DNA from: an uncultured Alphaproteobacteria bacterium
GTDB taxonomy: Bacteria; Pseudomonadota; Alphaproteobacteria; Rhizobiales; Xanthobacteraceae
Direction: 5' to 3'
NCBI GenBank assembly: GCA_965652015.1
Contig: CBFGVM010000001.1
Location: forward strand, 1-44,311
DNA: 44,311 nt
Shown: positions 17,350-35,508 of the stretch, in pieces
Layout: every line of letters starts with the position of its first letter
Numbering within the stretch: the first letter of the stretch is position 1
Position numbers and translations under genes: made by a program
The notes under the pieces: model-generated
What the model was told of the DNA's origin: nothing
Databases searched by the model: none
Seen by the model: only the letters and a program-made list of their open reading frames with translations

Positions 17350-17351
17350 GG

Positions 17352-17618
17352 ATGGCGACAACGGCAGCGGGCACCACCGAGCATCGGGAGCCGCGGGAGA
17401 AGGCCAGCAAGCCCGAGATCGTCATCGTCGATCTCGACAAGGCGCAGAGCCCGCGGGACGTTAGGCTTCTTCGCAAGGGCCGGGGCAAGCTGGCGTCCCG
17501 TGTCGAGCACATTGTCAACGACCTGACCGCCGCCGGCACCGTCAAGCCGACGGCGCAGCCCGTCGTGATCGTGGTGCGCGAATCGGCGTCGCCGTTCTCT
17601 TTCCTGGAAGACGATTGA
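17352..17618 (+). CDS. hypothetical small protein, coupled to 16987..17349
   Basis: The ATG lies 2 nt after the upstream stop. 88 aa with the core EIVIVDLDKAQSPRDVRLLRKGRGKLASRVEHIV...PVVIVVRE. No family recognised with confidence. Confidence 0.5.
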   Translation: MATTAAGTTEHREPREKASKPEIVIVDLDKAQSPRDVRLLRKGRGKLASRVEHIVNDLTAAGTVKPTAQPVVIVVRESASPFSFLEDD

Positions 17619-17661
17619 GCGGGCGCGGACCGCACGAGCAGACATCCCTCCTCGCCGCGTT

Positions 17662-17681
17662 CCCTCGCCCGGGGGCGAGGG
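17662..17681. terminator. GC-rich hairpin between convergent genes (bidirectional terminator candidate)
   Basis: ccctcgcc (17662-17669), cggg, ggcgaggg (17674-17681) form an 8-bp perfect stem. It lies in the 89-nt gap between stop codons at 17618 (+) and 17708 (-). There is no clear U-run. Confidence 0.3.
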
Positions 17682-17707
17682 TGCCCGTTCGTGTCTGCCG
17701 ACCGCGG

Positions 17708-18937
17708 CTATCGGGGTGGTTCGCCCGCAGCTGAGATGATGCGTCCCACAGCGGACGTGAACATCGGCTTCAGCAGCAAGGACATGCCCGGCTGGTTTGC
17801 GAGCGCGAAAATCCCATTGCGCAGCCGAAGTTTCCATTGGGTGGTCGGCGCGCTCCAACGCGCCATTCGTCGCCCGGCGGCTTGCTGCCGTTCGATGGCG
17901 GGTTTCAGTAGCGCTTCGTAACGCTCGAGCGCGACCTCGATGCTCTGCTGCCGCAGCAATTCCTGCGCCAACAGATAAGCCGCCGCCATCGCGAGCGATG
18001 CGCCTTGCGCCGCCAGTACTGATACCGCTTGGCACGCATCGCCGACCAAGCCGACGCGGTGGCGCCGCCATCTCGGCAACTCGATCTGCGCGACCTGGTC
18101 GTAGTAGATGGAGGGCAGTGCCGCGGCCCGCTCGAGCGCGACGGGAACGAGCCAGCCGAGATCGCCGAACGCGGCGCGTAGCTCAGCCAAGGGATTAGCG
18201 ACGGTGGCCGTCGGCGACGCGCGGTGAACGAAGAATGAGGCGATGCGGCCACCGCGAATGGGAAAGAAGCCCACGTGCCGCCCGCGCAGCGAGAGCAACT
18301 TGAGCTCGCCATGCAGCGCTTGAGCGAGCGTGGGATGCTCAAAGGCGAACGCGGCGGCGCGAAAGCCGAGATGGCGCACGAACGAGGCTTCATCTCCGAA
18401 CAGGTGCGCGCGCATGGCCGAATGGATGCCATCGGCCCCGATCAGGACGTCGGCCACTTCGTTTTCGCCGCTCGTGAGTGTGACGTCGATCTCAGTCTCG
18501 AGCGAGTTCAGCCTTTTGATCTCGCGGCCGAATCGAACCTCTACCGTGTCCGGCAAGTCGTCGAACAGCGCCCAAACCACGTCGCCGCGCATTAAGCTCA
18601 GCACGCGGCCGTCGAGGAGGCGCCGGAACACCTCATAATCGAGTTCCGAAACCGGCCGCTCGTGCTCGTCGATCCAGGAGACGCGGTGCACCCGGTAGCA
18701 GAGCTCCTGCAAACGCCGGAGTAGACCCATCCGTTCGGCGACCGTGTAGCCCGGACCATAGAAGTCGAACATGTACCCTTCGTCGCGAAGCCGTGCAGCC
18801 TTCTCGACGATCAGCACGCGGCAGCCGCCCCGGCCCAGCCACCAGGCCAGGGTCAAGCCGGCGATGCCGGCTCCGCAAATGATCACTCTCGCGGCGGGGG
18901 GCATGGTGAGGCCGTGCGCAGATCCCCGCGGCGCCAT
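17708..18937 (-). CDS. FAD-dependent monooxygenase (UbiH/aromatic-ring hydroxylase-like fold)
   Basis: 409 aa with the Rossmann motif VIICGAGIAGLTLAWWL, DG motif GADGIHSAMR and GD motif VGDACQAVSVLAAQGASLAMAAA. The start ATG overlaps the stop of the upstream GNAT gene (TGATG at 18935..18939). Confidence 0.85.
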   Translation of the reverse strand: MAPRGSAHGLTMPPAARVIICGAGIAGLTLAWWLGRGGCRVLIVEKAARLRDEGYMFDFYGPGYTVAERMGLLRRLQELCYRVHRVSWIDEHERPVSELDYEVFRRLLDGRVLSLMRGDVVWALFDDLPDTVEVRFGREIKRLNSLETEIDVTLTSGENEVADVLIGADGIHSAMRAHLFGDEASFVRHLGFRAAAFAFEHPTLAQALHGELKLLSLRGRHVGFFPIRGGRIASFFVHRASPTATVANPLAELRAAFGDLGWLVPVALERAAALPSIYYDQVAQIELPRWRRHRVGLVGDACQAVSVLAAQGASLAMAAAYLLAQELLRQQSIEVALERYEALLKPAIERQQAAGRRMARWSAPTTQWKLRLRNGIFALANQPGMSLLLKPMFTSAVGRIISAAGEPPR

Positions 18938-20112
18938 CAGTTCGCGCGCGCGGCGAAATCGCGATTGAAGACTTCGAATGCGGGAACAGCGGGCGTCTGC
19001 GGAAGCAGGAACCCGGATCCGTAGCGAATGACCCGTGACATCACCGGGCCCAGGCCCCTCGCGAAGATATACGACGGCTCGGAATAGCAGCCTAACCTGG
19101 CCTTGAAGACGTCGCCCGTGGCGCCGAGCTCGATACTTGCGACCTTTTTGCGCAAAGCGCAGTCGAGCGCCGCATAATGCAAATTGAAATAGAGATCCAA
19201 CTCGTCATTGAAGTGGTAGTCGAGGCCGGCGTACAGCATGTAATAGGTCGTCGCGGTCTGCAGGCACCAGCCAAACGCGATGATTCGCGAGCCCTTGGAA
19301 AACAAAATGAGATTGACCTTGTCCCCCAAGCGGGATGCCAGCTCGTGCAGGTAATCGATGGTTAGAGCCTCGAACTTGACGCCAGCCCTGTCGCGCACCT
19401 GAAAATATAAATCGTGAACTTCGGGCGTGTAGGCTTTCAGGATCTGCTCGGCGTCTGTCAAAACCTTTATCTCGACGCCCGCTGATTCGAGTTTGCGGAT
19501 CGAGCGCCTGATCTGCTTGCGGTAGTGTGATTTCAAGGCCGCGCAATAATGCTCGAGGTCTGTGAATAACGGTTTGAAAAAGTACAGTGCCGGACCGGTG
19601 ATGCGTTGATACCCGAGACCGAGCAGCGGCTTGGTCCATTGCAAATCGTCTTGCCGGAACTCCCGGTAAACGACGGCATGCGCTCGCGCCGTCGCCGCCA
19701 ATTCGCTTATCACCCCATCGACGAGCGGAAGAATTTGCGGGCTCGCCTGCCGCGTCGCGAGAGCGAGCGTGTTATGTGCAGTGGAAACGGGCAGACCGCA
19801 AATCAGGACATTGAAATTTCGCAGCGGCAACATGCTTCCAGGAAAATGTCGAATGAACCAAGCCATCGCCTTGTCGGAGAAATCCGCCATGTCGAGCGTC
19901 ATGCCGGTCAGACAAGCGCATGCCGCCGGCCGCGTATCGTCATCGTATACGACAACGTACCAGAACCGGCAGCTCTGCTTCATGCTGCTCTCCACCGCGC
20001 CGAGGAAGCTCGGATCCATGATGATCGATGCGCCGGCTTGCGAGCGCACCTTTTCCCAGGCGGCAAGATCCACTTTGTCGATGGAAGGGAAGAGCCGATA
20101 ACTATGGGCCAT
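18937..20112 (-). CDS. FemAB/BioF2-like GNAT-fold acyltransferase (paralog A)
   Basis: The ORF begins at TTG 20115; I prefer ATG 20112 (MAHSYRLFPSIDKVDLAAWEKV...). About 391 aa. The C-terminal core IIAFGWCLQTATTYYMLYAGLDYHFNDELDLYFNLHYAALDCALRKKVASIELGATGDVFKARLGC is typical of the FemAB-like acetyltransferase fold. It is a clear paralog of 20273..21490. Confidence 0.8.
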   Translation of the reverse strand: MAHSYRLFPSIDKVDLAAWEKVRSQAGASIIMDPSFLGAVESSMKQSCRFWYVVVYDDDTRPAACACLTGMTLDMADFSDKAMAWFIRHFPGSMLPLRNFNVLICGLPVSTAHNTLALATRQASPQILPLVDGVISELAATARAHAVVYREFRQDDLQWTKPLLGLGYQRITGPALYFFKPLFTDLEHYCAALKSHYRKQIRRSIRKLESAGVEIKVLTDAEQILKAYTPEVHDLYFQVRDRAGVKFEALTIDYLHELASRLGDKVNLILFSKGSRIIAFGWCLQTATTYYMLYAGLDYHFNDELDLYFNLHYAALDCALRKKVASIELGATGDVFKARLGCYSEPSYIFARGLGPVMSRVIRYGSGFLLPQTPAVPAFEVFNRDFAARAN

Positions 20113-20141
20113 CAATGCATGGTCCTAACCATGGAACAAAT

Positions 20142-20157
20142 GCGAATTTGTATTCGC
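20142..20157. promoter_or_regulatory. perfect palindrome GCGAAT-N4-ATTCGC in the divergent GNAT-GNAT intergenic region (operator candidate)
   Basis: gcgaat (20142-20147), ttgt, attcgc (20152-20157). It lies in the 160-bp gap between the divergent starts at 20112 (-) and 20273 (+). Confidence 0.3.
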
Positions 20158-20272
20158 TCTGCGGACAAAGACAAGGATCGGGACCGCCGGAATGACGGCG
20201 TTCGAATGCTGGACAATCGCCGGCCGCTCCCCTAGGAGCGAAGCTCTATCGAACACACTCTCGCAGCCGACC

Positions 20273-21490
20273 ATGCTCTACAACTACCGGCTCTTCGACT
20301 CGATCGGCGACGTCGATCTTGCCGCCTGGGAACAGGTGCGCTCGCAAGCCGGCGCGCCGATCTTCATGGATCCGCGCTTCATTGCTGCGGCCGAGACCAG
20401 CATGAAGCCGGAATGCCGGTTCTGGTACGCGATCGTCTACGACGGCGACGGCCGCGCTGCGGCGTGTGCGTGCGTCACCCGCATGACCATCGATCTCGCA
20501 GATTTGGCCGATGCGCGCGTGGCCTGGGTCATCCGGCGCGCGCCCGGAGTATTCTCAAGGTTTCGCAAGCTCAAAGTCATGATCTGCGGATTGCCGGGAT
20601 CGCCCGGCGAGAAGACCTTGGCAATGGCATCGGCAAACGAGAGTCCGCACATTCTCCCGCTGCTCGATCGCGCGATATGCGATTTGGCGGAACACGACGG
20701 AATGGACGTGATCGCGTTCAAGGAGTTTGCGCAGCACGATCTGGAAGCGATGAAGCCGTTGCTCGAGCTTGGATATCGCTGCATCCCAAGTCTGCCGATG
20801 CATTTGTTCGAGCCGTCGTTCTCGGATTTTGCGCACTACTGCGCTGCCCTGAAAACGCGCTACCGCCAGCAAATCAACCGCTCGACGCGAAAGTTGAAGA
20901 ATTCCGGCATCGAACTATCGGTGCTGACCGATCCGGAAGAAATATTGCGCGTGTACACGCCGCAGGTTCACGCTCTGTATCACCAGATGGTGGCCAAGGC
21001 CGAGCTCAATCTCGAAGTGCTTCCGATCGATTTTTTTCGTCAGCTGACGTCGCGATTGAGCGGCGAAGTTGAGCTCATCGCATACTCCAGGGACTCGACG
21101 ATCATTGCATTCGGCTGGTGCCTGCATACTTCCGCGACGTATAGCATGTTGTATGCCGGGCTCGACTACCGGCTCAACGATCAGTTCGATCTCTATTTCA
21201 ATCTGATGTATGCGGGTCTCGATCGGGCTCTGCGAAAGGGCGTGGAGAAAATCCAGATCGGGCAATCCGCGAGTACTTTCAAGGCGAGGCTCGGCTGTTA
21301 TTCGGAGCCGCTGTACGTGTTCGCCAAGGGCCTCGGGCCATTGATGTCGCCACTCATTTACTATGGAGCGAACCTGCTCATTGCCGAAAAGCCCGCGCTC
21401 CCCGCATCGCACATATTCAAGAGCAGTGTCGCCGGCAGCATGACGGACGGAAAATCGATCGACAATGCTCGCGGCGGCTCTGCTGGCTGA
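20273..21490 (+). CDS. FemAB/BioF2-like GNAT-fold acyltransferase (paralog B)
   Basis: I prefer ATG 20273 (MLYNYRLFDSIGDVDLAAWEQV...), which aligns with the N-terminus of paralog A. 405 aa, with the same C-terminal core (IIAFGWCLHTSATYSMLYAGLDYRLNDQFDLYFNLMYAGLDRALRKGVEKIQIGQSASTFKARLGC). Confidence 0.8.
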   Translation: MLYNYRLFDSIGDVDLAAWEQVRSQAGAPIFMDPRFIAAAETSMKPECRFWYAIVYDGDGRAAACACVTRMTIDLADLADARVAWVIRRAPGVFSRFRKLKVMICGLPGSPGEKTLAMASANESPHILPLLDRAICDLAEHDGMDVIAFKEFAQHDLEAMKPLLELGYRCIPSLPMHLFEPSFSDFAHYCAALKTRYRQQINRSTRKLKNSGIELSVLTDPEEILRVYTPQVHALYHQMVAKAELNLEVLPIDFFRQLTSRLSGEVELIAYSRDSTIIAFGWCLHTSATYSMLYAGLDYRLNDQFDLYFNLMYAGLDRALRKGVEKIQIGQSASTFKARLGCYSEPLYVFAKGLGPLMSPLIYYGANLLIAEKPALPASHIFKSSVAGSMTDGKSIDNARGGSAG

Positions 21491-21549
21491 ATGATCGGGC
21501 GGCCCGGTCCACCGGTTCGGCGGTCGGCCTGCCGTCGCCAAACGATAGC

Positions 21550-24276
21550 TCAGGTCGCGAGGGAAAAGCCCAGCCCGTCAGCAACCCTGCCGAGATCCTC
21601 GATGGTGCGCGGATCAAGCCGCCCGCACAGGTGCTCGCTGCGAAATCCGGACAGCGCGAGTACGATCGTCTCCGCAGCGCATGCCAGCAACACATTGCCT
21701 CGGTCGGGCTCCTCGAGCAGGCCCAGCGCCGACGCTTCGGGCGCTCGCACGAGACCGCCGTCCACGATACGGACGTCGGGCCTTTCGTTGCCGAGATTGG
21801 GCGCGATATTGAACGGCCGCGAGACGTCGCACACCATGGCACACTTGCGCAGATGACGTGCGGAAATGAACGGAAGGACGGCGTTGGTGGCCGTCACGAC
21901 CACGTCCGCCCTGGGCAAATGCCGGTCGATATCCGTCGTGATGGTGATACCCGCGTCCACATTCGCGCTCGGCGTCGGGCGCTGCGTGCAGCGCCGTGCG
22001 AACGTGCCGGGAGCGAACCTGCGGCCGGAGGCGGCGAGCGAGGCCACATGGCGCTCGCAGTCGTCGGCCACGAGCCGCAGCCTAGCCATGCTCGCCTCGA
22101 CGGCGTCGGGATTACCGATGAGGATCAGCTCGGCGGCACGCTCGGCGCACAGCAGGCTCAGCGCATATCCGATGGCGCCAGCGGCGCCGACGACGGCGAC
22201 GGTGCAATCGGCGAGCGACTTCCCATGCCTGGCGCAGGCCGCCTCCAGCGCCTGCACTGCCACCCAGCTCGTGTAGCTGTTGCCGCTCGTCACAGTCACG
22301 CCCTTGCGCGCCCGTAGCGCCAGTCCGCCGAAGGTGATGATCGAGCTGAAGCCGGCCAATCCGACGACCTCGGCGCCGCGCTCGACCGCCGTATCGACCG
22401 CGCTCTGCACCAGCGCCACCGCTTCATCTTCCGAGAGCGCGACCAGCTCGGACGGCAAGTGCGGCAGCGCGACCAGCTCGCCCTCGGTGCGACGGCCATC
22501 GGCCGTTTCGACTGCGAGCTCGCCGAACGGGTATGGCTTGATGAATTCGGTGATGCGCGACTTCAATCCCTCCAATTCCGGGTCGCTGAACGGCTCGAGG
22601 CTGGGATCGAACCGTCGCAGGCTACCGGCGTCGAGCAGGTGCACGATGAACGCGAAACGCGCGCCGTCGCGGCGGCCCACTCTGCGCGGCGCAGCGGCGA
22701 CCGCCGTGGGTCGGGATGGCGCACTGAATGGAGGCGGCATGCGCGCGCGCGAGCGGCCCATGAGATGCCCGACTAGCTCGGCCGCGTCGCCCCGTTGCAG
22801 TGCGTCCAACAGCCGCCGCAGCGCGCCGATCAGATGGTCGCACAGCGCGGCATCGGCGATCAGCGGCGGCTCGATGCGCAGCACGGTGCCGTGAGTGAAC
22901 GATGGCGCGATGCGGATGCGCTCGACATTGAGCAGGTAACTGACCGCCACGTAGAGAAGCAAACCCTGCTCCTGCAACATAGCCAACATGCCGGTCTGGG
23001 TTTCGGCGAGGGCAGGGAGGTCCAGCTCGACTCCCAACATCAGGCCGCGCCCGCGGATCTCCTTCACCAGCAGCGGATACTCGGTTTGGAGCTGCCGCAA
23101 TTGCTGCTGCAGGTGATCGCCGATCGCGGCCACATGGCGCACCAGTCGTCGGTCATCCTTGGTCAGCTCCTCGATCGTCGCCAGCGCCGCCCGGCACGCG
23201 AGGGCATTGCCGGCGAAGGTGGAGCCGTGCCGCAGGTCGAACTGCTCCGTGTAGGCGTTCTCGGTGTAGAGACAGGCACCGATCGGCATCAGCCCGCCCC
23301 CGAGGGCCTTGGCCAGCGCAAGGATATCGGGTGTGATGCCTTCGGCCTCGCAGGCGAACAAGTTGCCGGTTCGACCGAGGCCGGTCTGCACCTCGTCGAC
23401 AATGAGCAGCATGCCGTGGCGGTGGCACAGCTCCAGAGCCGCCGCCATATAACCTGGCGGCGCGACGCGAATGCCCGACTCGCCCTGGATGATTTCAATC
23501 AGGAAGGCGGCGAAGAAATCGGGTTGGCCCGCCAACGCTGCTTGCAGCGCCGCGAGGTCGCCGAACGGGACCACGTGGAAACCGGGGACCGGAGCGCCGA
23601 AACCGCGCTGAAAGAATGCCGTATCGGTCGCCGACATTCCCGCCAGGGTGAGTCCGTGGAAGGCGTCGCGGGCCGCCAAGATCCCGGCGCGACCGGTGCG
23701 GCAGCGGGCGAGCTTGATGGCGGCCTCGACCGACTCCGCGCCGCTGTTGGTGAACACGACGTGCGCTAGACCGGGCGGAGCCACCGCAAGCAATCGCTCC
23801 GCCAATTCCCCTTGTGTCGGAGGGATCGACGCGATCACGAGGTTCGGCACGGCGTCTCGCCGTGTGCTCTCCAGCGCCTGCCATATCGTTGCCGGATCGT
23901 GACCGAACGGAACGGCTCCGAATTGGGCGATGCAGTCGGCGTAGCGATTGCCGTCGGCGTCGAGCAGGTAGCATCCTTCGCCGCGGACGAAGCTCTTGTC
24001 CAGACCGAGGCGCTGGTAGAGGAATCCCTTGTACGGGGCGACGTACCTTATGTAGGGGTCCTGCTCCTGCGCGTTCCAGTCCTTGAGCGACGCAAGCGCG
24101 ATCGTCTCGCCGTCGAGGAAGGATTTGCGACGCTCGTCGGCAGGCTCGCGCGCCGGGGCATCGTCCTTGGCAGCCGCCGCGTCCGGTGTGGAGACACGGC
24201 TGCGCTTGCGCAGGTGCTCCGCCAGTAACGCACGCTTCTGCGCGGGCGTGAGTTGCCCCAACCCCAAGCTGGACAT
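21550..24276 (-). CDS. fusion protein: class-III (omega) aminotransferase + acyl-ACP reductase (cyanobacterial AAR)-like NAD(P)-binding reductase
   Basis: The true start is taken as ATG 24276 (MSSLGLGQLTPAQK...), which overlaps the PKS stop (TGATG at 24274..24278). 908 aa. See the two domain features below. Confidence 0.85.
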   Translation of the reverse strand: MSSLGLGQLTPAQKRALLAEHLRKRSRVSTPDAAAAKDDAPAREPADERRKSFLDGETIALASLKDWNAQEQDPYIRYVAPYKGFLYQRLGLDKSFVRGEGCYLLDADGNRYADCIAQFGAVPFGHDPATIWQALESTRRDAVPNLVIASIPPTQGELAERLLAVAPPGLAHVVFTNSGAESVEAAIKLARCRTGRAGILAARDAFHGLTLAGMSATDTAFFQRGFGAPVPGFHVVPFGDLAALQAALAGQPDFFAAFLIEIIQGESGIRVAPPGYMAAALELCHRHGMLLIVDEVQTGLGRTGNLFACEAEGITPDILALAKALGGGLMPIGACLYTENAYTEQFDLRHGSTFAGNALACRAALATIEELTKDDRRLVRHVAAIGDHLQQQLRQLQTEYPLLVKEIRGRGLMLGVELDLPALAETQTGMLAMLQEQGLLLYVAVSYLLNVERIRIAPSFTHGTVLRIEPPLIADAALCDHLIGALRRLLDALQRGDAAELVGHLMGRSRARMPPPFSAPSRPTAVAAAPRRVGRRDGARFAFIVHLLDAGSLRRFDPSLEPFSDPELEGLKSRITEFIKPYPFGELAVETADGRRTEGELVALPHLPSELVALSEDEAVALVQSAVDTAVERGAEVVGLAGFSSIITFGGLALRARKGVTVTSGNSYTSWVAVQALEAACARHGKSLADCTVAVVGAAGAIGYALSLLCAERAAELILIGNPDAVEASMARLRLVADDCERHVASLAASGRRFAPGTFARRCTQRPTPSANVDAGITITTDIDRHLPRADVVVTATNAVLPFISARHLRKCAMVCDVSRPFNIAPNLGNERPDVRIVDGGLVRAPEASALGLLEEPDRGNVLLACAAETIVLALSGFRSEHLCGRLDPRTIEDLGRVADGLGFSLAT
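21553..22659 (-). other. domain: AAR-like acyl-ACP/acyl-thioester reductase (approx. aa 540-908 of the fusion)
   Basis: Compared from memory with Synechococcus AAR: FAFIVHLLD vs FGLIGHLTS; GLAGFSSIITFGG vs LGGFTSIIFENF; VTSGNSYTSW...CTVAVVGAAGAIGYALS vs FTTGNTHTAY...ATVAVVGATGDIGSAVC; NVLLACAAETIVLALSG vs QMFACFAEAMLLEFEG. The candidate catalytic Cys codon is at 21679..21681. Boundaries are approximate. Confidence 0.7.
22777..24054 (-). other. domain: class-III PLP aminotransferase (approx. aa 75-500 of the fusion)
   Basis: Motifs FTNSGAESVEAAIKLAR, IEIIQGESGI and LLIVDEVQTGLGRTG. The PLP-lysine context DILALAKALGGGLMPIGA places the Lys codon at 23308..23310. Boundaries are approximate. Confidence 0.8.
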
Positions 24277-27200
24277 CAGGCGCGCCCTTCCGACGCGAGC
24301 TCGCTCAGGTGACGGTCGACTTCCTTCTCGCTGAGTTCGTCGATGCGCTCGAGCAGGTCGGCAGCGTCCGCTCCGCTCAATGGCGGGCTCGGCTGCGCAG
24401 CGGGCATCCCGCCGTTGCCTGATGACTCGGCGCCGCCGCGGCGGTTGTCTTCGAGCAGCCGCTCCGCAACATAGGAACACAAGGCACTGATGGTGCTGTC
24501 GCTTTGCATGAACTTCGCAAGCGGCACATTCATACCGAGCTCGACATTGATACGGTTGCGCACTTCGACGGCGATCAGGGAGTCGAGGCCCAGATTGCGG
24601 AGCGACTGTTCGGTGTCGATACGGGCGGGTGAAGTACCCATCGCCCGTGCCAAGAGATCCTGGACGTAGGCCTGCAGCAATGACGGAAGCGCTGCCTCGT
24701 CCGCGTCGAGCAGGTCGTGCACGCCGGAGCCCGCGGACGTGCCCTCTTTTTCTGCGCCGCCATCGCTGACCAGTGTGGAATACCGGGCCGGAGTGCGCGT
24801 ACCCATCGATCGCAAGAGGCCCTTCCACTCGACCTCGGCCACCCCGACTTGGACGGCGTCGCTGGACAAGAGCTCGTCGAGCGCATCGAGGGTTTCAGAG
24901 AGCGGCATGGCCTTGAGGCCAAGCCGTTCGAGGCGTTGCGCAGTCTCCGGGCTTCCCGCCACGTGGCCAACCTCGCCAACCACACCCCAGTTGATGGTGA
25001 GAGCAGGAAGCCCGCGCGCCCGCCGGTAATAAGCCAGCGCATCCAGGAACGCATTGCCGGCGACGTAATTAGCCTGACCCGCATTGCCGATGAGGGAGGC
25101 GAGCGACGAAAACAGTACGAAGAAATCCAATGGAGCATCGAGCGTCAGCGTGTGGAGATTCCAAGCGCCGATAACCTTTGGCGCCATCGCCTTCCACATC
25201 CGCTCCTCGGTCAGGCGCTCGATCGGCGCATCGTCCAGAACCATTGCGGCGTGCACGATGCCTCGCAGCGGTCCCATCCGGCGCCGAAGTGTCGTGATGA
25301 CCTCTCTGGTCTGCTCACGATCCGTGATGTCCGCGGCGGCGACGAGCACTTCGACGCCGCGCTGCCGCAGGCTCTCCAGTGCGGCCTGCGCGGACGGCGA
25401 GGGAGCGCTGCGGCCGACCAGCGCCAGGCGGCGTGCGCCGCGGCGTGCCAGGTGGTCGGCCACCGCAAGTCCAAGACCGCCCAGTCCCCCGGTGATCAGG
25501 TAGCTTCCCTCCGCATCGACCGCGACGGATCGCAGACCGTTCTCGACCTTTAGTCCCTCGTTGTCCCGCATCGAGATGATCAGCTTGCCGATATGCTTGG
25601 CCTGCGCCATGTAGCGGAACGCATCCGCGGCGCGCGCGGCCGGAAACACGCGGTGCGGCAGCGGGCGGAGGCTCCCGCAGTCCACTCGCGCGATGACTTC
25701 CTGCAGCATCGAACGGGCAAGGCCCGCCCGCGCTCCCAGCGCGCCGAGCAAATCCGCCACGAACACGGAAATGTTCCTACGCAGTACCCGCATCCCGATC
25801 TTGCGGTTCTTGAAGATGTCGGTCTTGCCAATTTCGATGAACCGTCCGTATGGCCGCAGAAGCGAGAGGCTCTTGTCGATCGCGTCGCCGGAAAGCGAGT
25901 TCAGCACGATGTCGACGCCTTCGCCGTCGGTCAGCTTGAGCACTTCGTCGGCGAAGGCCAGAGTGCGCGAATCCATGACATGCGGCACTCCCAGCGCCGC
26001 GAGCAGTTGGCGCTTCTCGGGCGAGCCGGCCGTCGCGAAGACGATGGCCTCCGCTTGCAAGGCCAGTTGCACCGCCGCCAGTCCAACGCCACCGGTCCCG
26101 GCATGGATCAGCACGCGCTCTCCGCGTTGCATCCGTCCCAGTGTGTGCAGCGAATAGAAGGCGGTCAGGAAGGCGAGGGGGATCGTCGCCCCCTGCTCGA
26201 GGCTCAAATGGCGCGGCTTGTGCGCGACGAACTGGGTATCGACCGTCAGATGAGACGTCAAAGTGCAGGATTTGGCGGCGATGACCTCATCGCCCACGGC
26301 AAAGTCCGAAACCTGCTCGCCGACGGCGACCACGCGGCCGGCGCATTCCAAGCCGAGCAGCTTGCCGGCGGAGCCGTCCGCGGCCGCCTCCGCGGGAAGC
26401 ATGCCCATGGCCAGCATGAGATCCATGAAATTGAGGCCGGTGGCTGCGACTTCGATCTCGACCTCGGTGGGGCCAAGAGGTCGGTGGGCGACGCTGCAGG
26501 CGTGCAAGGAGTCGAGAATTCCCGGTCGCGCCACTTCGATCTGGAACCGTTTCGGGCTCTGCTCAACCGGCCGGCCCATCCCCTGCACCGTGGCCGGTGA
26601 TACCGGCAGCAGCCGGCGCACATATCTGAGTTCGCCATGCAGGGCGATCTCATCCTCGGCGTCGGTCCCGGCGTCCAATTCCGCGGCCAGCGACGCGATC
26701 TCCTCGCTGGAGCAGGTGGCCAGATCGACCAGTCGGCAATGCAAATTGTGGTACTCGTTGGTCGCGACCCTCGCGAACCCCCATAGTGGCGATTGCGCTA
26801 GTCCAAGCAGGTCGGCGCCATCAGCCAGCGGCTGGGCCGCATGCGTCACCAGCCAGATGTGATCGACGGCCATGTCGTCGGTCGCCGCGAGCGCCTGCAC
26901 CAACTGCATCACCGAGACGCAGCCCAGCTGCGCGGACGACGTGAACGCGTCGTTCGTCATCGTATTCGCCGCCCCGGTGTCGAGACTCCACAGATGTACG
27001 ATGCCAGCGAGCTGGGGGGCCTGCCTATCGAGGCTCTCCACCAAGCGCTTCATGTCGGCCGGATTGCCGCAGCGGATGCTGAAGTCCCTCGCTCCGCTGT
27101 GGCGGAAGTCCGCACCGTGCATCACCCGGATGACGCGGTCTCCGCGCTGCTCGAGCTTGCGGGCAAGCTCGGCGGCGGCGCTCGGGCGGTCCGCGGTGCC

Positions 27201-30200
27201 GGCGTCGGCGAACAGCAGCCAGCTCTTCGAAGCGTCGGATGCTTGCGACATCGATGCGGGCGATGCCGGCGCTCGAGGGCCTCGCGCGAGAATCACCGAG
27301 TGCTGCGCGTTTTCGGCCTCCGGGCAATCAGCGATGCACACCGTGCCGGTGAAGCCGGCTTCGCGCAGCAAGCTCCTCCACGTTTCTTGAGAAACGCAGG
27401 GCTCGTCCGCTCGCACGGCGTCGTCGAAGAGCCACCAGCCCTTCAGCAGCCCGAAGATCAAGGTCATGAACAGCCAAGGACGCGTCAGCTCCACGACCAT
27501 GAGCGTCCCGCCGGAGCCAAGGAGTTGCTTGAGCCGGTCGAGCGTGTTGCGCAGATCGGTCGTGGCATGCAGCACATCCGACGCGATGATCAGGTCGAAC
27601 GAATTGGCATCGAAACCCTGCTCCAGCGGGTCGCGCTCGATATCCAGCGTTCGGACTTGCACGAAGGGAAACGGGGCGAACTTGTGCTGTGCGTGCGCGG
27701 TGAAGCGGGGAGAGATGTCGGTGAACACGTATTCGGTGCAATGATCCGGCAGAACGGGAAGGACGAAGCTCGTCATCCCTCCTGTCCCACCGCCGACCTC
27801 CAGAATTCGCAACGCCTTTCCTTTGGGCAGGCGCCGCGCGATCTCGGCGACCGCTTTCTGCACCAACAGATTGTTGAGGCGGAAGCTCGGTGAATCCTGA
27901 TACAGCGCCTCTGCCGTCGTCAGCGTGCCTTCCGGAAAGATGAGGTTGAGCGGATCGATCTCGCCGCGCAGTACGGGCGCGAGTTTCTCTCCGCAAAGCC
28001 GAATCAGCATCAACTCGGCCTGACATTCCGGGAACTCGTCCCACAACGCCTTCCAGAGGCGGGACGGCTCCTCGTCCGAGTCGATCTCGCCGGCGGTCAA
28101 TTCCTTCAACATGAGCCGCAACCACCGGAGGTATTGCGGCGCCATACCTAATTGAGCGGCGAGTTTCTCGGTCGACAGCCCCTGGCGTGATGCCGGGGTC
28201 CAGCCCATTTCACGCAGCGCTTTCACGATGTAGGCGGCAACGGTCGCACGCGAGAGGGACTGAAACTCGCGCTGATAGCGGGCACGATTGAACCGCTCGC
28301 GCAGCATCTCGCCTTCCTGCTGCATGAGCGGTCCGAGCGCATCCAGCGATGGGAGATGGTGCGAGTCCCGACCTTGGCGTGTCGCCAGCCGCGGGTCGAG
28401 CTTCCATTGATACTCGTAGAGGGTGCTGAGCCTTCGTTGCGCCCCGGACCCGATCGGGCGCACGAGCAAGCCTTCTACTTCGACCACGCAACTGCCCGAC
28501 TCGTCTAGGATTTGGATGTCCACCCTGAGTTCGGCCGAGGTGCGCCTCGCCACGCGAGTATGGGCGAAAGCGCGGATCGGCGGCGCAGCATGGAAGCGCA
28601 CTCGCTCGATCTTCACAGGCACAAAGGTCTCGCCTTTGAGGGCCTGCCAGTTCGTCCATGTCGGCAGAGCCGCCAACAAGGTCTGAAAGCAAGCGTCGAG
28701 AATCGCGGGATGCAAGCGATAATCGGACAGATGCTCTCGTAAGCAGCTCGGAGAATGGATTTCGGCGAGAACCTCCCGTTCGTTCCGCCATAACCGCGCG
28801 ATGCCCTGAAACGTCGGGCCGTAATGATATCCGCATTCGGCAAAGCGGCGGATGCATTCGCGGTGGTCGAATGCCTCGGGGCAACGCCGGCGAATTTCCG
28901 CGATGTCTGCACTGGGGGGCGCTGATCCGCTCGATGACCTGACGCAGCCGTGGGCGTGGACGTCCCACGTATTCTCGGACGCATCTGCGCGGGTGCAGAT
29001 GTCGAATTCGCTCGTGGACGGATCGAACGCTACCTGCGCCAAAGGCGCCGCGCCCTGATCGAGGATCAGGAACTTTTGAAATTCGATATCCTCCACCACG
29101 CAAGGAACAGGCCCCAAGGTCTCGCGGGCGGCCGCCAGCGCCATCTCCACATATCCGGCGCCCGGAAAGATGACGGCGTCGCCGATCCGATGGTCCGCCA
29201 GGTAGCTCAAGTTCGCCGTGTCCAGCGCAACGCTCCAGGACGGCTTCGGTGCCTCTAGCCGGCTTCCGAGCAGGGGATGAACCGAAGCGCCTACCCGTAT
29301 CCGGCGCGTCGTTTCGGATTCGCGCCAATGACTGTCCGGCTGGAACGGATATACGGGCAGCTTGATGGCGGTCGCCTCGGCTGGATAGAGCCGTTGCCAA
29401 TCGATCTGGGCTCCAAGGGTATACAGCCGGCCGAGCGATCCGAGCAGCGCCGCCCGCTCGCGATCGTCCCGGCGCAGCGAACCCAGCGTCGCGCCGCCCG
29501 CTGACTTTTCCTCCAAGCACTGGGCGATGTCGTTTCGCAGGATCGGATGCGCACCGAGCTCGAGGAATATCGTGTGCCCGGTCTCGATGACCTTGCCGAG
29601 GGTATCGTGGAACAGGACTGGCTGACGGATGTTCCGGTACCAATACCGGGCATCGAGCTCGGATCCCGACAGAGCGGTGCCGGTCACGGTGGAAAAGAAC
29701 GGGGTCGTCGCCGGTCGCGGCCGAATATCACGCAAGCAGTCCAGGAGCTCCGCTTCGAGCTGCTCCATCCTCGGGCTGTGATACGGCACGTCCACGCGCA
29801 AGGGGCGGCTGAATACGTCCATCTCGTTGAGAGCCTGGTCGATCTCGCCGAGCACCGCAGCGTCGCCGGAGAGGGTGATCGACATCGCGCCATTTACCGC
29901 CGCGAGCGAAATGGCGTGGGGATGCCGTGCAATCCATTTGGCCGCCTCTTCACGGGAGATCCCCACGGCCAGCATCGTGCCTTGTCCGGCTGTTCGGTAT
30001 TGCAGGCGGCTGCGATGGAAGGTGACCCGAACGGCATCCTCCAGCGACAGCGCTCCAGAGATATAGGACGCCGCCATCTCACCGGCGCTATGACCCAGGA
30101 CGGCCGCGGGTTCGACGCCCCACGATCGCCAGAGCGCCGCGAGCGCAACCTGCAGCGCGAAAATCGCGGGCTGTCCGATATGGGTTTGCTGGATGCGCGA

Positions 30201-31988
30201 CGTCTGCTCGTCGGCGGTCAATTCGTGCAACAACGACCAGCCGGCAAGCCGATCGAAGAGTTCGCTCACCTCTTCGATGGCTCGGCGAAAAACCGGTTCC
30301 TGTGCCAGCAATTCGCGTCCCATTGCCCACCACTGCTGGCCCATGCCCGAGCAGACGAACACGGGGTTCAACGCGATAGCCGAAGTGCGGCCAGTCGAAG
30401 TGTTGGCGCGGGTTTCGCCCGCAACGAATGCCTGGAGTTGCCCCACGAGCTCGGCGTGATCGTGAGCAACGAGCGCCAGCCGGAATTCGTGATGAGAACG
30501 CTTCACGCCGGCGGAAAAACAGATATCGCGGAGCGACTCGCGCCGCAGGCCGCGCTTGTCTCCGAGCGCGCTCGCATACGAGCGCGCCAGGTCGGATAGC
30601 GCGGATGCGCTACGTGCCGAGAGCGGCAGCATCCACGCAAGATCGTCGCCGACTTCGGCCTGAATTCGCCCGGCCAAGCCGGCATCGGGAGGTGCCTCGA
30701 GGATCGCGTGTCCGTTCGTGCCGCCAAAACCGAAAGAGTTTACGGCAGCGCGCGGCGGGCGGCCGCGCGTTTCGGGCCAGGGCTCCAGTCCCTGTACGAC
30801 CCTCAGCCGCAGGTCATCGAAATCGATTTGTGGATTCGGAGTCTCGAAGTGCAGACTCTTGGGGATTTCGCGGTGCTGCAGGCACAGCGCTGCTTTGATC
30901 AAGCCGGTTATGCCCGCAGCCGCTTCCAGATGACCGATGTTGCTCTTGATCGAGCCGATCACGCAGCGGTCATTGGGGGGGCGCGCCTTACCATAGATTG
31001 CTCCGAGGGCTGCGGCCTCGATCGGGTCGCCCACGGGCGTTCCGGTCCCGTGCGCCTCGACGTACTGAATGCTATCCGGTGCAATATCAGCCAGCCGCAG
31101 GGCATCGGCTACGTTTGCTTCTTGTGCGACCTGGTTCGGAACCGAGATCCCCGCAGTGCGGCCATCCTGATTGACCGCCGTCGCGCGAATCAAGGCATAG
31201 ATGCGATCGCGATCGGCCAATGCGCGCGAGAGTGGCTTGAGAATGACGACGGCAGCACCTTCGCCGCGCACGTAGCCATTGGCGCGCGAATCGAAGCTCT
31301 TGCACCGCCCGTCGGGCGATAGCATCGATGCCTTAGAGAACCCGATGGTGAGTTCGGGCCGCAGCGTCAGGTTGACGCCACCTACGAATGCCAGCTCGCT
31401 CTCGCCGTTCCAGATGCTGCGGCAGCCTAAATGAGTGGCCACGAGCGAGGAAGAACACGCGGTATCGACGGCGAGACTTGGTCCAACAAGGTTGAAGAAA
31501 TAGGAGATGCGGTTGGCTGCGATACATAGCGACGAGCCGACATTGGTGTACGCGTCGATGGCGGCCCGCGCCTCCGGCATGAGCTGGAGAATGCTGTAGT
31601 CCCAGCTGCAGATCCCGATATACACGCTCGCCCGCTTATTCGCCAAAGCGGCCAAGGTGAGGCCGGCATCTTCGACGGCGTGATATGCGACCTCGAGCAA
31701 AAGTCGCTGTTGCGGGTCTGCCGGCTCGGCCTCCCGCGGGGTGATGCCGAAGAATTGGGCATCGAACCGATCGATCTGATCGAGAAAGCCGCCCCAGCGC
31801 GTATTCATTCGTCCCGGCTTGGCGGGATCCGGGTGATACATCGCCGAGAGGTGCCACCGCTCTGCGGGAGCCTCGACAACGGCGTCAACGCCGCCGACGA
31901 GCAAGTTCCATAAATCGTCGGGGCTACGCACGCCACCGGGCAATCGACAACCAATACCAACGATCGCGATCGGTTCGACGCCAGTCAT
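24276..31988 (-). CDS. stand-alone highly reducing type I polyketide synthase, KS-AT-DH-cMT-(psiKR)-ER-KR-ACP; no loading, TE or R domain
   Basis: Part of ORF 24276..32054. I prefer ATG 31988 (MTGVEPIAIVGIGCRLPGG), preceded by GGGAG. 2570 aa. All domain signature motifs are present; see the domain features below. Confidence 0.95.
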   Translation of the reverse strand: MTGVEPIAIVGIGCRLPGGVRSPDDLWNLLVGGVDAVVEAPAERWHLSAMYHPDPAKPGRMNTRWGGFLDQIDRFDAQFFGITPREAEPADPQQRLLLEVAYHAVEDAGLTLAALANKRASVYIGICSWDYSILQLMPEARAAIDAYTNVGSSLCIAANRISYFFNLVGPSLAVDTACSSSLVATHLGCRSIWNGESELAFVGGVNLTLRPELTIGFSKASMLSPDGRCKSFDSRANGYVRGEGAAVVILKPLSRALADRDRIYALIRATAVNQDGRTAGISVPNQVAQEANVADALRLADIAPDSIQYVEAHGTGTPVGDPIEAAALGAIYGKARPPNDRCVIGSIKSNIGHLEAAAGITGLIKAALCLQHREIPKSLHFETPNPQIDFDDLRLRVVQGLEPWPETRGRPPRAAVNSFGFGGTNGHAILEAPPDAGLAGRIQAEVGDDLAWMLPLSARSASALSDLARSYASALGDKRGLRRESLRDICFSAGVKRSHHEFRLALVAHDHAELVGQLQAFVAGETRANTSTGRTSAIALNPVFVCSGMGQQWWAMGRELLAQEPVFRRAIEEVSELFDRLAGWSLLHELTADEQTSRIQQTHIGQPAIFALQVALAALWRSWGVEPAAVLGHSAGEMAASYISGALSLEDAVRVTFHRSRLQYRTAGQGTMLAVGISREEAAKWIARHPHAISLAAVNGAMSITLSGDAAVLGEIDQALNEMDVFSRPLRVDVPYHSPRMEQLEAELLDCLRDIRPRPATTPFFSTVTGTALSGSELDARYWYRNIRQPVLFHDTLGKVIETGHTIFLELGAHPILRNDIAQCLEEKSAGGATLGSLRRDDRERAALLGSLGRLYTLGAQIDWQRLYPAEATAIKLPVYPFQPDSHWRESETTRRIRVGASVHPLLGSRLEAPKPSWSVALDTANLSYLADHRIGDAVIFPGAGYVEMALAAARETLGPVPCVVEDIEFQKFLILDQGAAPLAQVAFDPSTSEFDICTRADASENTWDVHAHGCVRSSSGSAPPSADIAEIRRRCPEAFDHRECIRRFAECGYHYGPTFQGIARLWRNEREVLAEIHSPSCLREHLSDYRLHPAILDACFQTLLAALPTWTNWQALKGETFVPVKIERVRFHAAPPIRAFAHTRVARRTSAELRVDIQILDESGSCVVEVEGLLVRPIGSGAQRRLSTLYEYQWKLDPRLATRQGRDSHHLPSLDALGPLMQQEGEMLRERFNRARYQREFQSLSRATVAAYIVKALREMGWTPASRQGLSTEKLAAQLGMAPQYLRWLRLMLKELTAGEIDSDEEPSRLWKALWDEFPECQAELMLIRLCGEKLAPVLRGEIDPLNLIFPEGTLTTAEALYQDSPSFRLNNLLVQKAVAEIARRLPKGKALRILEVGGGTGGMTSFVLPVLPDHCTEYVFTDISPRFTAHAQHKFAPFPFVQVRTLDIERDPLEQGFDANSFDLIIASDVLHATTDLRNTLDRLKQLLGSGGTLMVVELTRPWLFMTLIFGLLKGWWLFDDAVRADEPCVSQETWRSLLREAGFTGTVCIADCPEAENAQHSVILARGPRAPASPASMSQASDASKSWLLFADAGTADRPSAAAELARKLEQRGDRVIRVMHGADFRHSGARDFSIRCGNPADMKRLVESLDRQAPQLAGIVHLWSLDTGAANTMTNDAFTSSAQLGCVSVMQLVQALAATDDMAVDHIWLVTHAAQPLADGADLLGLAQSPLWGFARVATNEYHNLHCRLVDLATCSSEEIASLAAELDAGTDAEDEIALHGELRYVRRLLPVSPATVQGMGRPVEQSPKRFQIEVARPGILDSLHACSVAHRPLGPTEVEIEVAATGLNFMDLMLAMGMLPAEAAADGSAGKLLGLECAGRVVAVGEQVSDFAVGDEVIAAKSCTLTSHLTVDTQFVAHKPRHLSLEQGATIPLAFLTAFYSLHTLGRMQRGERVLIHAGTGGVGLAAVQLALQAEAIVFATAGSPEKRQLLAALGVPHVMDSRTLAFADEVLKLTDGEGVDIVLNSLSGDAIDKSLSLLRPYGRFIEIGKTDIFKNRKIGMRVLRRNISVFVADLLGALGARAGLARSMLQEVIARVDCGSLRPLPHRVFPAARAADAFRYMAQAKHIGKLIISMRDNEGLKVENGLRSVAVDAEGSYLITGGLGGLGLAVADHLARRGARRLALVGRSAPSPSAQAALESLRQRGVEVLVAAADITDREQTREVITTLRRRMGPLRGIVHAAMVLDDAPIERLTEERMWKAMAPKVIGAWNLHTLTLDAPLDFFVLFSSLASLIGNAGQANYVAGNAFLDALAYYRRARGLPALTINWGVVGEVGHVAGSPETAQRLERLGLKAMPLSETLDALDELLSSDAVQVGVAEVEWKGLLRSMGTRTPARYSTLVSDGGAEKEGTSAGSGVHDLLDADEAALPSLLQAYVQDLLARAMGTSPARIDTEQSLRNLGLDSLIAVEVRNRINVELGMNVPLAKFMQSDSTISALCSYVAERLLEDNRRGGAESSGNGGMPAAQPSPPLSGADAADLLERIDELSEKEVDRHLSELASEGRA
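24465..24692 (-). other. PKS domain: acyl carrier protein
   Basis: LRNLGLDSLIAVEVRNRI; the phosphopantetheine Ser (aa 2492 of the 2592-aa ORF) is encoded at 24579..24581. A 100-aa tail follows, with no thioesterase or reductase domain. Confidence 0.85.
24960..25505 (-). other. PKS domain: ketoreductase (catalytic subdomain, LDD/B-type)
   Basis: YLITGGLGGLGLAVADHLARRGARRLALVGRS, HAAMVLDDAP (LDD motif) and SSLASLIGNAGQANYVAGN. Boundaries are approximate. Confidence 0.85.
25569..26543 (-). other. PKS domain: enoylreductase
   Basis: MDR fold with the NADPH motif VLIHAGTGGVGLAAVQLA and C-terminal AFRYMAQAKHIGKLII. Boundaries are approximate. Confidence 0.85.
27285..28052 (-). other. PKS domain: C-methyltransferase (SAM-dependent)
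   Basis: SAM motif I LRILEVGGGTGGMT (about 27781..27810), DLIIASDVLHAT and GGTLMVVE. It sits between DH and the KR structural subdomain, as in other cMT-containing PKSs. Boundaries are approximate. Confidence 0.8.
28440..29282 (-). other. PKS domain: dehydratase
   Basis: HPLLG...LADHRIGDAVIFPGAGYVEM (His codon 29190..29192), plus the downstream YGPTFQG and LHPAILDACFQ motifs. Boundaries are approximate. Confidence 0.85.
29400..30365 (-). other. PKS domain: acyltransferase
   Basis: FVCSGMGQQW and GHSAGE (Ser codon 30087..30089). The specificity position reads VDVPYHSPRM, which is neither HAFH nor YASH. Boundaries are approximate. Confidence 0.85.
30699..31982 (-). other. PKS domain: ketosynthase
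   Basis: DTACSSSLVATHLGC (active-site Cys codon 31455..31457), VEAHGTGTPVGDP and GSIKSNIGHLEAAAG. Boundaries are approximate. Confidence 0.9.
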
Positions 31989-32141
31989 GGACACTCCCAG
32001 CCTGTAAGTATTCAGAATGCAAGGCTGTAAAGACGGCGTCAACCGCTGAGCCACTGGCGGTAAAAACAGACACCCGTCCGCTGTGCCACGGGTCTAGCGC
32101 GTTCTCTTGCGCGTCCAAAAGTCGCGCAGGAGTGTAGAACC

Positions 32142-32188
32142 AATTTGCAGGCAGAGGACACTAATTTGCAGAGGACCCTAATTTGCAG
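32142..32188 (+). repeat. three direct copies of AATTTGCAG in the PKS/CHAT divergent intergenic region
   Basis: Copies lie at 32142-32150, 32163-32171 and 32180-32188 (spacing 21 and 17 bp). Copies 2 and 3 extend to CTAATTTGCAG and are each preceded by AGAGGAC. In both, a GG lies exactly 10 nt upstream of the GC of TTGCA. Confidence 0.6.
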
Positions 32189-35495: not shown

Positions 35496-35508
35496 TTGTC
35501 AGCTCTTA

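Follow-up and report, generated by a model that had tools for sequence, protein, structure and literature searches.

We describe here a predicted biosynthetic gene cluster from an uncultured alphaproteobacterium of the family Xanthobacteraceae (NCBI GenBank assembly GCA_965652015.1, contig CBFGVM010000001.1). The stretch of DNA that was analyzed comprises 44,311 nucleotides and is called the window; coordinates refer to its forward strand. Five genes between positions 17708 and 31988 encode a polyketide synthase (PKS), a protein that joins a transaminase to a reductase (the fusion), two members of the GNAT superfamily (GNAT-A and GNAT-B) and a flavin-dependent monooxygenase, as follows.

17708..18937, minus strand: class-A FAD monooxygenase, 409 amino acids (aa), FAD_binding_3 (open reading frame [ORF] call, Pfam, NCBIfam)
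18937..20112, minus strand: GNAT-A, 391 aa, FemAB_like and Acetyltransf_6
20273..21490, plus strand: GNAT-B, 405 aa, FemAB_like and Acetyltransf_6
21550..24276, minus strand: fusion, predicted TamH/KecF-type bifunctional enzyme, 908 aa, Aminotran_3 and a C-terminal Rossmann domain
24276..31988, minus strand: PKS, single-module highly reducing type I enzyme, 2570 aa, with ketosynthase (KS), acyltransferase (AT), dehydratase (DH), C-methyltransferase (cMT), enoylreductase (ER), ketoreductase (KR) and acyl carrier protein (ACP) domains, in the order KS-AT-DH-cMT-ER-KR-ACP

An earlier note on this DNA had placed and named these genes, and ORF, Pfam and NCBIfam scans bear out the positions and all of the assignments. 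The note had also pointed to 1-nt stop/start overlaps at 24274..24278 and 18935..18939. Both are exact when the sequence is read directly: a literal TGATG stands at 24278..24274, between PKS and fusion, and another at 18939..18935, between GNAT-A and monooxygenase. Since its start overlaps the stop of GNAT-A, the monooxygenase is at least co-translated with GNAT-A. The starts of the fusion (24276) and of GNAT-B (20273) were set by alignment with homologues; the longest ORFs run to 24828 and from 20192, respectively.

The further claim that the five genes form one compact, back-to-back unit did not hold. That account omitted the strand of GNAT-B, which is opposite to that of the other four genes, and we therefore rejected the idea of a single operon. 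GNAT-B is divergent from GNAT-A across a 160-bp gap and convergent with the fusion across 59 bp, so that the five genes make up three transcription units. Counts of consensus promoters and terminators over 14200..32400 were at chance level and are uninformative on transcription units, and a tRNA scan and an Rfam scan of the whole window were both empty.

The polyketide synthase and the transaminase-reductase fusion

Every domain of the PKS keeps its catalytic signature. The translation contains DTACSS, EAHGTGT and NIGHLE in the KS, GHSAGE and VPYH in the AT, HPLLGSRL and DACFQ in the DH, HAGTGGVG in the ER, GGLGGLG, LDD and the S/Y/N residues in the KR, and LGLDSL in the ACP. The cMT (LEVGGGTGG) is intact and inserted between DH and ER, and the KR-DH-ER loop is complete and apparently active. 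Neither a thioesterase (TE) nor a reductase (R) domain was found in the PKS by Pfam or in the translation, and only a tail of about 70 aa follows the ACP. The best solved relative is mycocerosic acid synthase (MAS; 9D2Z, 1154 bits).

With a single full-loop module and an ACP without a TE, the PKS resembles MAS-like highly reducing synthases. Its AT does not carry the GHSQG and YASH motifs of a MAS-like, methylmalonyl-using AT, and has GHSAGE and VPYH instead. VPYH looks malonyl-type by its likeness to the VPSH of E. coli FabD. Because the AT motif is not YASH and the cMT is intact, the methyl branches are probably derived from S-adenosylmethionine (SAM). The PKS has one module and no loading module and resembles MAS, all of which suggests that it is probably used iteratively.

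MAS (9D2Z, 5BP1, 5BP4) likewise consists of one fully reducing module without a thioesterase, and its methyl-branched, saturated chain is handed on by a separate enzyme, as is proposed here for the PKS product. Unlike the PKS, MAS has no cMT and takes its methyl branches from methylmalonyl-CoA. Also, the MAS product is moved as an ester by PapA5-type enzymes, whereas the PKS product would be released as an amine.

The enzyme proposed to release it is the fusion, which begins with a class-III aminotransferase (Aminotran_3, E = 2e-86). Its domains run from a transaminase (TA, about residues 97-460) to a thioester reductase (TR, about 540-905). The C-terminal 436 aa match cyanobacterial acyl-ACP reductase (AAR) structures 6JZU and 6JZQ (6JZU at E = 1.6e-12, both at about 2e-12) and the reductase half of PigE (4PPM, E = 9e-23). 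A profile of 12 fusion homologues matches both halves of PigE in swapped order (E = 5e-153).

Conservation of the catalytic residues was judged over 12 homologues, down to 46% identity. K323 is invariant within D-I-L-x-L-A-K-A-L-G-G-G, which aligns with the motif LAKALGGG that holds the pyridoxal phosphate (PLP) lysine of YgjG and PigE. G697xxG700xxG703 is invariant in the family, as is C866 within ACAAETIVLAL, aligned with GCMAETIVLAL of PigE. By motif position, rather than by direct alignment with AAR at this site, C866 corresponds to C294 of SeAAR and C887 of TamH (PMC9594044). PigE is also the best NCBIfam match, at 468 bits against an equivalog cut-off of 850 bits. With a PLP lysine, an AAR-family domain carrying GxxGxxG and the cysteine, and the TA-then-TR order, the fusion is, by its predicted features, a TamH/KecF-type TA-AAR enzyme.

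More than 1600 homologues were found in a protein search with the fusion, and the close ones that are named come from metagenome-assembled genomes (MAGs) of Xanthobacteraceae and Hyphomicrobiales and from Methylobacterium nonmethylotrophicum. A TubC_N docking domain is present in homologues with about 46-71% identity. A contig scan with generic class-III aminotransferase motifs gave 80 loci, mostly unrelated transaminases, and among them were only about 20 full-length fusions and a single close relative.

Enzymes of this type have been studied in other pathways. PtTamH, which works with TamA in the synthesis of tambjamine YP1 in Pseudoalteromonas tunicata, shares with the fusion its architecture, PLP lysine, GxxGxxG and catalytic cysteine (PMC9594044). 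In vitro, PtTamH converts a fatty acyl group bound to the TamA ACP, not to CoA, to a primary amine (PMC9594044), and the freeing of a primary fatty amine from a carrier-bound chain is the reaction proposed for the fusion. The two systems differ in that PtTamH takes its acyl chain from a small adenylation-ACP didomain, onto which a free C12 fatty acid is loaded, whereas the window has a 2570-aa highly reducing PKS. They also differ in the fate of the amine, which is condensed with a bipyrrole aldehyde in the tambjamine pathway and would be acylated by a GNAT here.

KecF/PP_2782 of the Pseudomonas koreenceine pathway is a transaminase-AAR fusion of the same TA-then-TR order (PMC6498172, PMC10829540). 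KecF is proposed to off-load an ACP-bound polyketide by reduction and then transamination. Homologues of the fusion occur in two Pseudomonas loci (L010, about 40% identity, and L024, about 32%; labels of this form denote loci in our scans). Unlike the fusion, KecF has as its partner a type II-like PKS with discrete KS pairs and an ACP, and the product cyclizes to a tetrahydropyridine alkaloid. FemAB-like GNATs and the ABC1 kinase, DUF6312 and DUF6200 proteins described below are not reported for the KecF cluster.

PigE, from the branch of Serratia prodigiosin synthesis that makes 2-methyl-3-n-amylpyrrole, is homologous to the fusion in both halves (4PPM; PMC8341465). It is a reversed-order relative with the reductase at the N terminus, and it takes a 3-acetyloctanoyl thioester to a pyrroline. 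Actinobacterial polyketide alkaloids such as coelimycin and cyclizidine follow the same logic, turning a type I PKS thioester into an aldehyde and that into an amine (PMC5365063). However, their PKSs are modular, with a terminal reductase domain of the short-chain dehydrogenase/reductase (SDR) type and a separate transaminase protein, whereas the window has a single-module PKS and an AAR-type reductase, unrelated to the SDR type, fused to the transaminase. A 2024 paper describes the known transaminases of type I PKS alkaloid pathways as monofunctional (PMC10829540).

These comparisons sustain much of what the earlier note had proposed for the two enzymes. The PKS domain order, the missing TE and terminal reductase and the resemblance to MAS are supported by Pfam, by the motifs and by the 9D2Z match, and the AAR-like character of the C-terminal domain of the fusion by the 6JZU and 4PPM matches. 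The suggested conversion of acyl-ACP to a primary amine by way of an aldehyde has a biochemical precedent in PtTamH and genetic or partial ones in KecF/PP_2782 and PigE. Precedent exists for each proposed catalytic step, and we consider the step from PKS to amine very likely. The gene combination had been called an orphan. Within a literature search that had subscription journals outside its scope, we found no characterized cluster with a type I highly reducing PKS, a TA-AAR fusion and FemAB-like GNATs, but the fusion type itself is already characterized (PtTamH).

The FemAB-like acyltransferases, related loci and the monooxygenase

The two GNATs share 54% identity, and in neither is any of the 58 invariant positions of the family alignment altered. 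Each scores above the cut-offs of PF04339 (FemAB_like) and PF13480. Neither reaches the 24-bit cut-off of PF02388 (FemAB), to which GNAT-A scores 19.3 bits and GNAT-B has no match. A search of the PDB with the GNAT-B sequence gave no match, and the only PDB matches of the family profile are to FemX, with marginal scores (E = 0.4-0.7). The family itself has 421 representatives at 50% identity for E <=1e-30 and 2279 for E <=1e-10. COG3146 is described as uncharacterized (PMC3223725), and we found no characterized FemAB-like (COG3146/PF04339) member in the literature.

An AlphaFold2 model of GNAT-B (pLDDT 84, pTM 0.81) has a tandem-GNAT fold. In Foldseek, its best match is Weissella FemX (E = 3e-13, target TM-score 0.65), and the next are the aminoacyl-tRNA-dependent peptide synthases Sbb17/Sba18 and the soluble domain of MprF. 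In 19 family members, both paralogues of the window among them, the residue pair F336-K337 does not vary. In the C-terminal GNAT domain of DhpH-C, the catalytic F-K pair is F328 and K329, and the corresponding lysine of FemX is K305 (PMC12945691). F336-K337 lies 41 residues past a YxxYAG motif that aligns with FemX 254-258, and K305 of FemX lies 47 residues past it; this comparison of spacing is suggestive.

The window GNATs resemble FemX/FemAB, MprF and Sbb17/Orf11 (PMC12945691) in their tandem-GNAT fold and FemAB_like domain and perhaps in their invariant F-K pair, and an amine acceptor is proposed for them too. Their sequence similarity to FemABX, in contrast, is marginal by the PF02388 and FemX scores given above. 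The acceptors of these enzymes are a peptidoglycan precursor, phosphatidylglycerol and an aminosugar, whereas the acceptor here is presumed to be a lipid amine. The previous assignment of the GNATs to a FemAB-like type stands as far as family and fold are concerned (FemX, Sbb17 and MprF in Foldseek); the donor, and with it the N-acylated nature of the product, we still infer. The modeled fold slightly favors an aminoacyl-tRNA as the donor.

Another possibility is that the GNATs use acyl-CoA or acyl-ACP. The product would then be a neutral N-acyl methyl-branched alkylamine, an analogue of 1-deoxy-ceramide for the outer membrane, in line with the N-acylated lipid that the earlier note had predicted. 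The fold matches include the clavulanate-pathway tandem GNAT 2WPW and N-myristoyltransferases (E of about 1e-10 to 1e-9), and CoA-type acyltransferases (Acetyltransf_9, Carn_acyltransf) occupy the same position in relatives. A long-chain amine is the substrate of the bacterial ceramide synthase bCerS (Caulobacter CC_1154/CCNA_01212), a soluble N-acyltransferase (PMC11087976, PMC11324152) that may be a parallel to the GNATs. Nevertheless, the top fold matches and the sole PDB profile matches are aminoacyl-tRNA-dependent enzymes, the invariant F-K pair recalls FemX and DhpH-C (PMC12945691), and no Q/RxxGxG/A loop for the CoA pyrophosphate is evident by eye in the GNAT consensus. We therefore regard a ceramide-like product as a tentative alternative that deserves to be kept in mind.

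To place the GNATs in context, metagenome contigs were scanned for GNAT-centered loci. The scan yielded 79 loci, 26 of which are at least 8 kb long. Co-conservation of PKS, fusion and FemAB-like GNAT had been set beforehand as a test, and the outcome is positive: a PKS and/or a fusion gene stands beside the GNAT in 19 of the 26 longer loci. ABC1, DUF6312 or DUF6200 genes are present in 11 of the 26, and two or three FemAB-like GNATs in 9. The core of PKS, fusion and GNAT recurs in dozens of contigs, and the cluster family is common in uncultured soil Xanthobacteraceae and other Hyphomicrobiales.

The layouts vary around this core. One locus (L087) has the same layout as the window and is 94-100% identical. 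In five others (L001, L084, L085, L088 and L091), PKS and fusion converge on an orthologue of GNAT-B. L081 has a split PKS, a fusion and a carnitine-acyltransferase-like protein, and L083 has a PKS, a fusion, Acetyltransf_9 proteins and a second PKS. In L082 and L167, a nonribosomal peptide synthetase (NRPS) with condensation (C), adenylation (A), peptidyl carrier protein (PCP) and nitroreductase domains (C-A-PCP-nitroreductase) precedes the fusion, and in L006 (Chthonomonadaceae), this place is taken by FAAL-ACP-KS-AT-ACP. As read from predicted domains, what is conserved among these layouts is a carrier-protein megasynthase with TA-TR after it, together with an amine-directed acyltransferase that varies.

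When the GNAT sequences were clustered, GNAT-B fell into the main orthologue group (46 of 93 sequences), which sits at the 3' end of the fusion wherever the flanks are long enough. The 28 sequences of a second group lie on the upstream side of the PKS and mostly have an Acetyltransf_9 gene as tandem partner. The only sequence to cluster with GNAT-A is its orthologue in L087. GC content is 0.58-0.60 over the GNAT-A/GNAT-B pair (19000..22000), versus 0.65-0.68 in fusion and PKS, and this fits the rapid turnover of acyltransferase genes at that position in relatives.

A locus from a distant phylum provides independent support for a functional pair. In Planctomycetaceae (L017), a FemAB-like GNAT gene (36% identical) comes after a fusion gene (41% identical) in the same orientation, with nothing else relevant nearby. 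Genes for IS91-type (Y2_Tnp) and rve integrase/transposase proteins lie downstream of this pair (L017:10001-18456), which suggests that the two-gene module is mobile.

Related clusters also contain genes that the window lacks (L084:3230-9983, L001:13993-20746, L086:6310-12613). These encode a carnitine-acyltransferase-like protein, an Eis-like Acetyltransf_9 protein, an A-PCP-TE protein and a Methyltransf_2 O-methyltransferase. In L086, an A-PCP-carnitine acyltransferase fusion and an NAD_binding_4 reductase replace PKS and fusion. In terms of its predicted genes, the window is a reduced version of a highly modular cluster family.

Could the five genes simply be neighbors? In that case only PKS and fusion would form a pathway, to a free fatty amine, the GNATs and the monooxygenase would serve an unrelated process, for example by modifying the cell envelope or inactivating xenobiotics, and the ABC1 and RND genes described below would be ordinary neighbors. 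The different strands and transcription units, the lower GC over the GNAT pair and the lineage-specific nature of GNAT-A and monooxygenase all fit such an arrangement, as do the similarity of the monooxygenase to tetracycline destructases and the two loci (L086, L169) that have a GNAT without the highly reducing PKS and fusion. However, orthologues of GNAT-B adjoin the fusion or the PKS in 19 of the 26 loci with enough flank, the fusion-GNAT pairing recurs as an isolated two-gene module in a distant phylum, and loci without the PKS still have carrier-protein and reductase genes beside the GNAT. We consider this explanation very improbable. From gene co-occurrence and fold, it appears somewhat probable, on balance, that the GNATs acylate the PKS-derived amine.

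The monooxygenase (PF01494, E = 4e-16) has the features of class A, namely FAD_binding_3, an N-terminal GxGxxG and homology to aromatic hydroxylases. Its best solved relatives are the tetracycline destructases Tet(50-56) (E = 1e-36 to 5e-40); 6-hydroxynicotinate 3-monooxygenase NicC also matches (E = 2e-34), and 2-methyl-3-hydroxypyridine-5-carboxylate (MHPC) oxygenase is another solved relative. Its score to PRK07588 (295 bits) is below the 454-bit cut-off. Since the substrates of such enzymes are electron-rich rings, aromatic or heteroaromatic, the product may bear an aromatic acyl or aminoacyl group, the chain may be cyclized, or the monooxygenase may have another role. Therefore, although the FAD monooxygenase proposed earlier as a tailoring enzyme has been confirmed in its identity, its aromatic/heteroaromatic class suits a purely aliphatic lipid poorly.

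The same relatives bear on a different type of product. If the PKS skipped reductions, the amine could cyclize onto a retained carbonyl to give a piperideine- or pyridine-type alkaloid (compare koreenceine and coelimycin), the monooxygenase could hydroxylate the ring, and the GNATs would act elsewhere or in self-protection. Tetrahydropyridine alkaloids are indeed made by KecF-type fusions (PMC6498172), reduction followed by transamination is the general actinobacterial route to polyketide alkaloids (PMC5365063), and pyridine-ring oxygenases (6-hydroxynicotinate 3-monooxygenase and MHPC oxygenase) are among the relatives of the monooxygenase. Yet the complete and apparently active KR-DH-ER loop speaks for a saturated chain, very few related clusters have the monooxygenase whereas almost all have acyltransferases directed at amines, and the cluster has no cyclase or oxidase typical of alkaloid clusters. 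An alkaloid product is thus doubtful, and we continue with an acylated fatty amine as the preferred reading.

Flanking genes and the proposed pathway

Five genes to the left of the cluster, all assigned by Pfam, form what we call the platform.

9293..10210 and 10210..11139, minus strand: two tandem membrane fusion proteins (MFPs), about 305 aa each, with a start/stop overlap at 10210
11157..14276, minus strand: RND efflux pump
14754..16616, plus strand: ABC1/UbiB-family atypical kinase with hydrophobic C-terminal segments
16879..17349, plus strand: DUF6312 acidic protein, true start probably near 16987
17346..17618, plus strand: DUF6200 small protein, about 88 aa, acidic tail (E = 3e-17)

DUF6200 recurs in many loci (L001, L084, L086, L087, L095, L097, L103, L118, L119, L136 and L167-L172). 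In related loci DUF6312 is always directly upstream of it, and the pair, both members of which have strongly acidic tails, follows the ABC1 kinase gene. ABC1 stands beside DUF6312/DUF6200 in L084, L086, L087, L119, L136, L153 and L170-L172, and the RND pump and MFPs stand beside ABC1 in L086, L087, L119, L136, L153, L167 and L170-L172. The tandem-MFP pairing is conserved in L087, L167 and L170. To our knowledge, RND systems with two MFPs are uncommon; TriABC is one example.

When the surroundings of DUF6200 were searched, this block turned up in every case, although some of its genes were missing. In four of five layouts, a thiotemplate gene or a GNAT is in view beside the block: an NRPS and a fusion in L167, GNATs, an ACP and a methyltransferase in L169, and a PEMT-like methyltransferase and a protein with adenylation, methyltransferase (MT), carrier and thioesterase domains (A-MT-PCP-TE) in L170-L172. 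The L167 layout recurs in L168, a short contig that ends before thiotemplate genes would appear. The AlphaFold2 model of DUF6200 (pLDDT 78) has no fold match in the PDB with E <1, and literature searches returned no paper on DUF6312 or DUF6200.

Because ABC1, RND, DUF6312 and DUF6200 genes recur beside such clusters, the unit probably spans about 9293..31988. The RND pump with its two MFPs is a probable exporter, as the conserved neighborhood suggests. The earlier note was undecided on whether the cluster includes the ABC1 kinase and the RND pump; both recur with these clusters, and the DUF6312 and DUF6200 genes had been missed.

We propose the following pathway, which draws on directly observed gene identities, catalytic residues, translational coupling and co-conservation and on the fold of the GNAT-B model. 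The MAS-like, probably iterative PKS would build a reduced acyl chain, C-methylated from SAM, on its own ACP, with extender and chain length inferred. By analogy with PtTamH, the fusion would take the acyl group from the ACP onto Cys866 and reduce it with NAD(P)H to an aldehyde, which its PLP domain (Lys323) would transaminate to a primary fatty amine. Co-occurrence and fold suggest that the FemAB-like tandem GNATs then acylate this amine, with GNAT-B as the conserved partner and GNAT-A as a lineage-specific second enzyme. An aminoacyl-tRNA donor would give an aminoacyl- or dipeptidyl-alkylamide, and an acyl-CoA or acyl-ACP donor would instead give a ceramide-like N-acyl amine. The class-A monooxygenase coupled to GNAT-A may be an optional tailoring enzyme. 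To judge from their conserved neighborhood, the ABC1 kinase, DUF6312, DUF6200 and the two-MFP RND pump may handle or export the hydrophobic product. As a whole, a thiotemplate lipid cluster that makes a methyl-branched fatty amine, caps it by GNAT action and exports the product is a reading we hold with moderate confidence.

Several observations weigh against this reading. The GNATs and the PKS are not joined by an operon, since there are three transcription units. The AT motif VPYH fits neither canonical PKS specificity signature, and no TubC_N docking domain was detected at the N terminus of the window fusion or in its closest relatives, although 56-64% identical homologues possess one. Full-length TA-TR homologues in Bacillota often lie beside unrelated genes. 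The Foldseek gap between tRNA-dependent and CoA-dependent tandem GNATs amounts to about three orders of E-value, with TM-scores of 0.55-0.65. The FemAB-like GNAT can be exchanged for a carnitine-acyltransferase-like protein (L081) or for Acetyltransf_9 proteins (L083), so that the acyltransferase step appears to be interchangeable. The solved relatives of the monooxygenase oxidize aromatic or pyridine rings, a poor fit to a saturated chain. Finally, among the related loci retrieved, GNAT-A and the monooxygenase occur only in L087, the closest relative; at their position L088, with a fusion that is about 95% identical, has two other GNATs.

Other genes of the window, and implications

The remaining genes of the window lie on both sides. 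On the left, 379..5682 (minus strand) encodes a bacterial alpha-2-macroglobulin of 1767 aa with macroglobulin (MG) domains, a bait region and a TED domain; a plus-strand ORF that overlaps it (313..2667) is probably spurious. A cyclic-nucleotide-binding domain fused to an SLC13/DASS-type (Na_sulph_symp/CitMHS) transporter is encoded at 7171..9153 (plus strand), and AT skew is strongly negative (-0.19) over 7-9 kb. The genes of the right flank (32145..44229) are not conserved with the PKS cluster. They encode a TPR-CHAT protein (32145..35471, plus strand), an outer membrane protein (OMP) beta-barrel (35509..36558, minus), a CHASE2-adenylate/guanylate cyclase (36610..38757, minus), a Peptidase_C14 protein with TPR (38797..40338, minus), an OmpA-family protein (40872..41507, plus) and a Peptidase_C14/CHAT protein (42394..44229, plus). 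These genes, several of them for CHAT or caspase-like proteases, may together represent a signaling or conflict system.

The cluster is still one orphan among very many. It would add a third biosynthetic context for TamH/KecF-type enzymes, that of a type I iterative highly reducing PKS, after the TamA didomain and the type II PKS of koreenceine synthesis. Together, PKS and fusion would make branched fatty amines with just two proteins, a compact route that may be of use in biocatalysis, and the amine would be a testable substrate for the COG3146/FemAB_like family.

A more far-reaching proposal, which we think rather unlikely, is that FemAB-like (COG3146/PF04339) proteins are aminoacyl-tRNA-dependent and build an aminoacyl or short peptidyl head group on the polyketide fatty amine. 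With one to three paralogous GNATs in a stack, residues would be added one after another, as by FemX, FemA and FemB, and the platform, which is widespread in soil Xanthobacteraceae, would carry the product to the envelope or outside. If this is true, the product would belong to a new class of lipids, cationic alkylamides whose synthesis needs no NRPS.

The RND-ABC1-DUF6312-DUF6200 platform flanks variable thiotemplate genes in abundant uncultured soil Alphaproteobacteria and could therefore guide genome mining. It may also reveal a lipid-export function for a bacterial ABC1 kinase.

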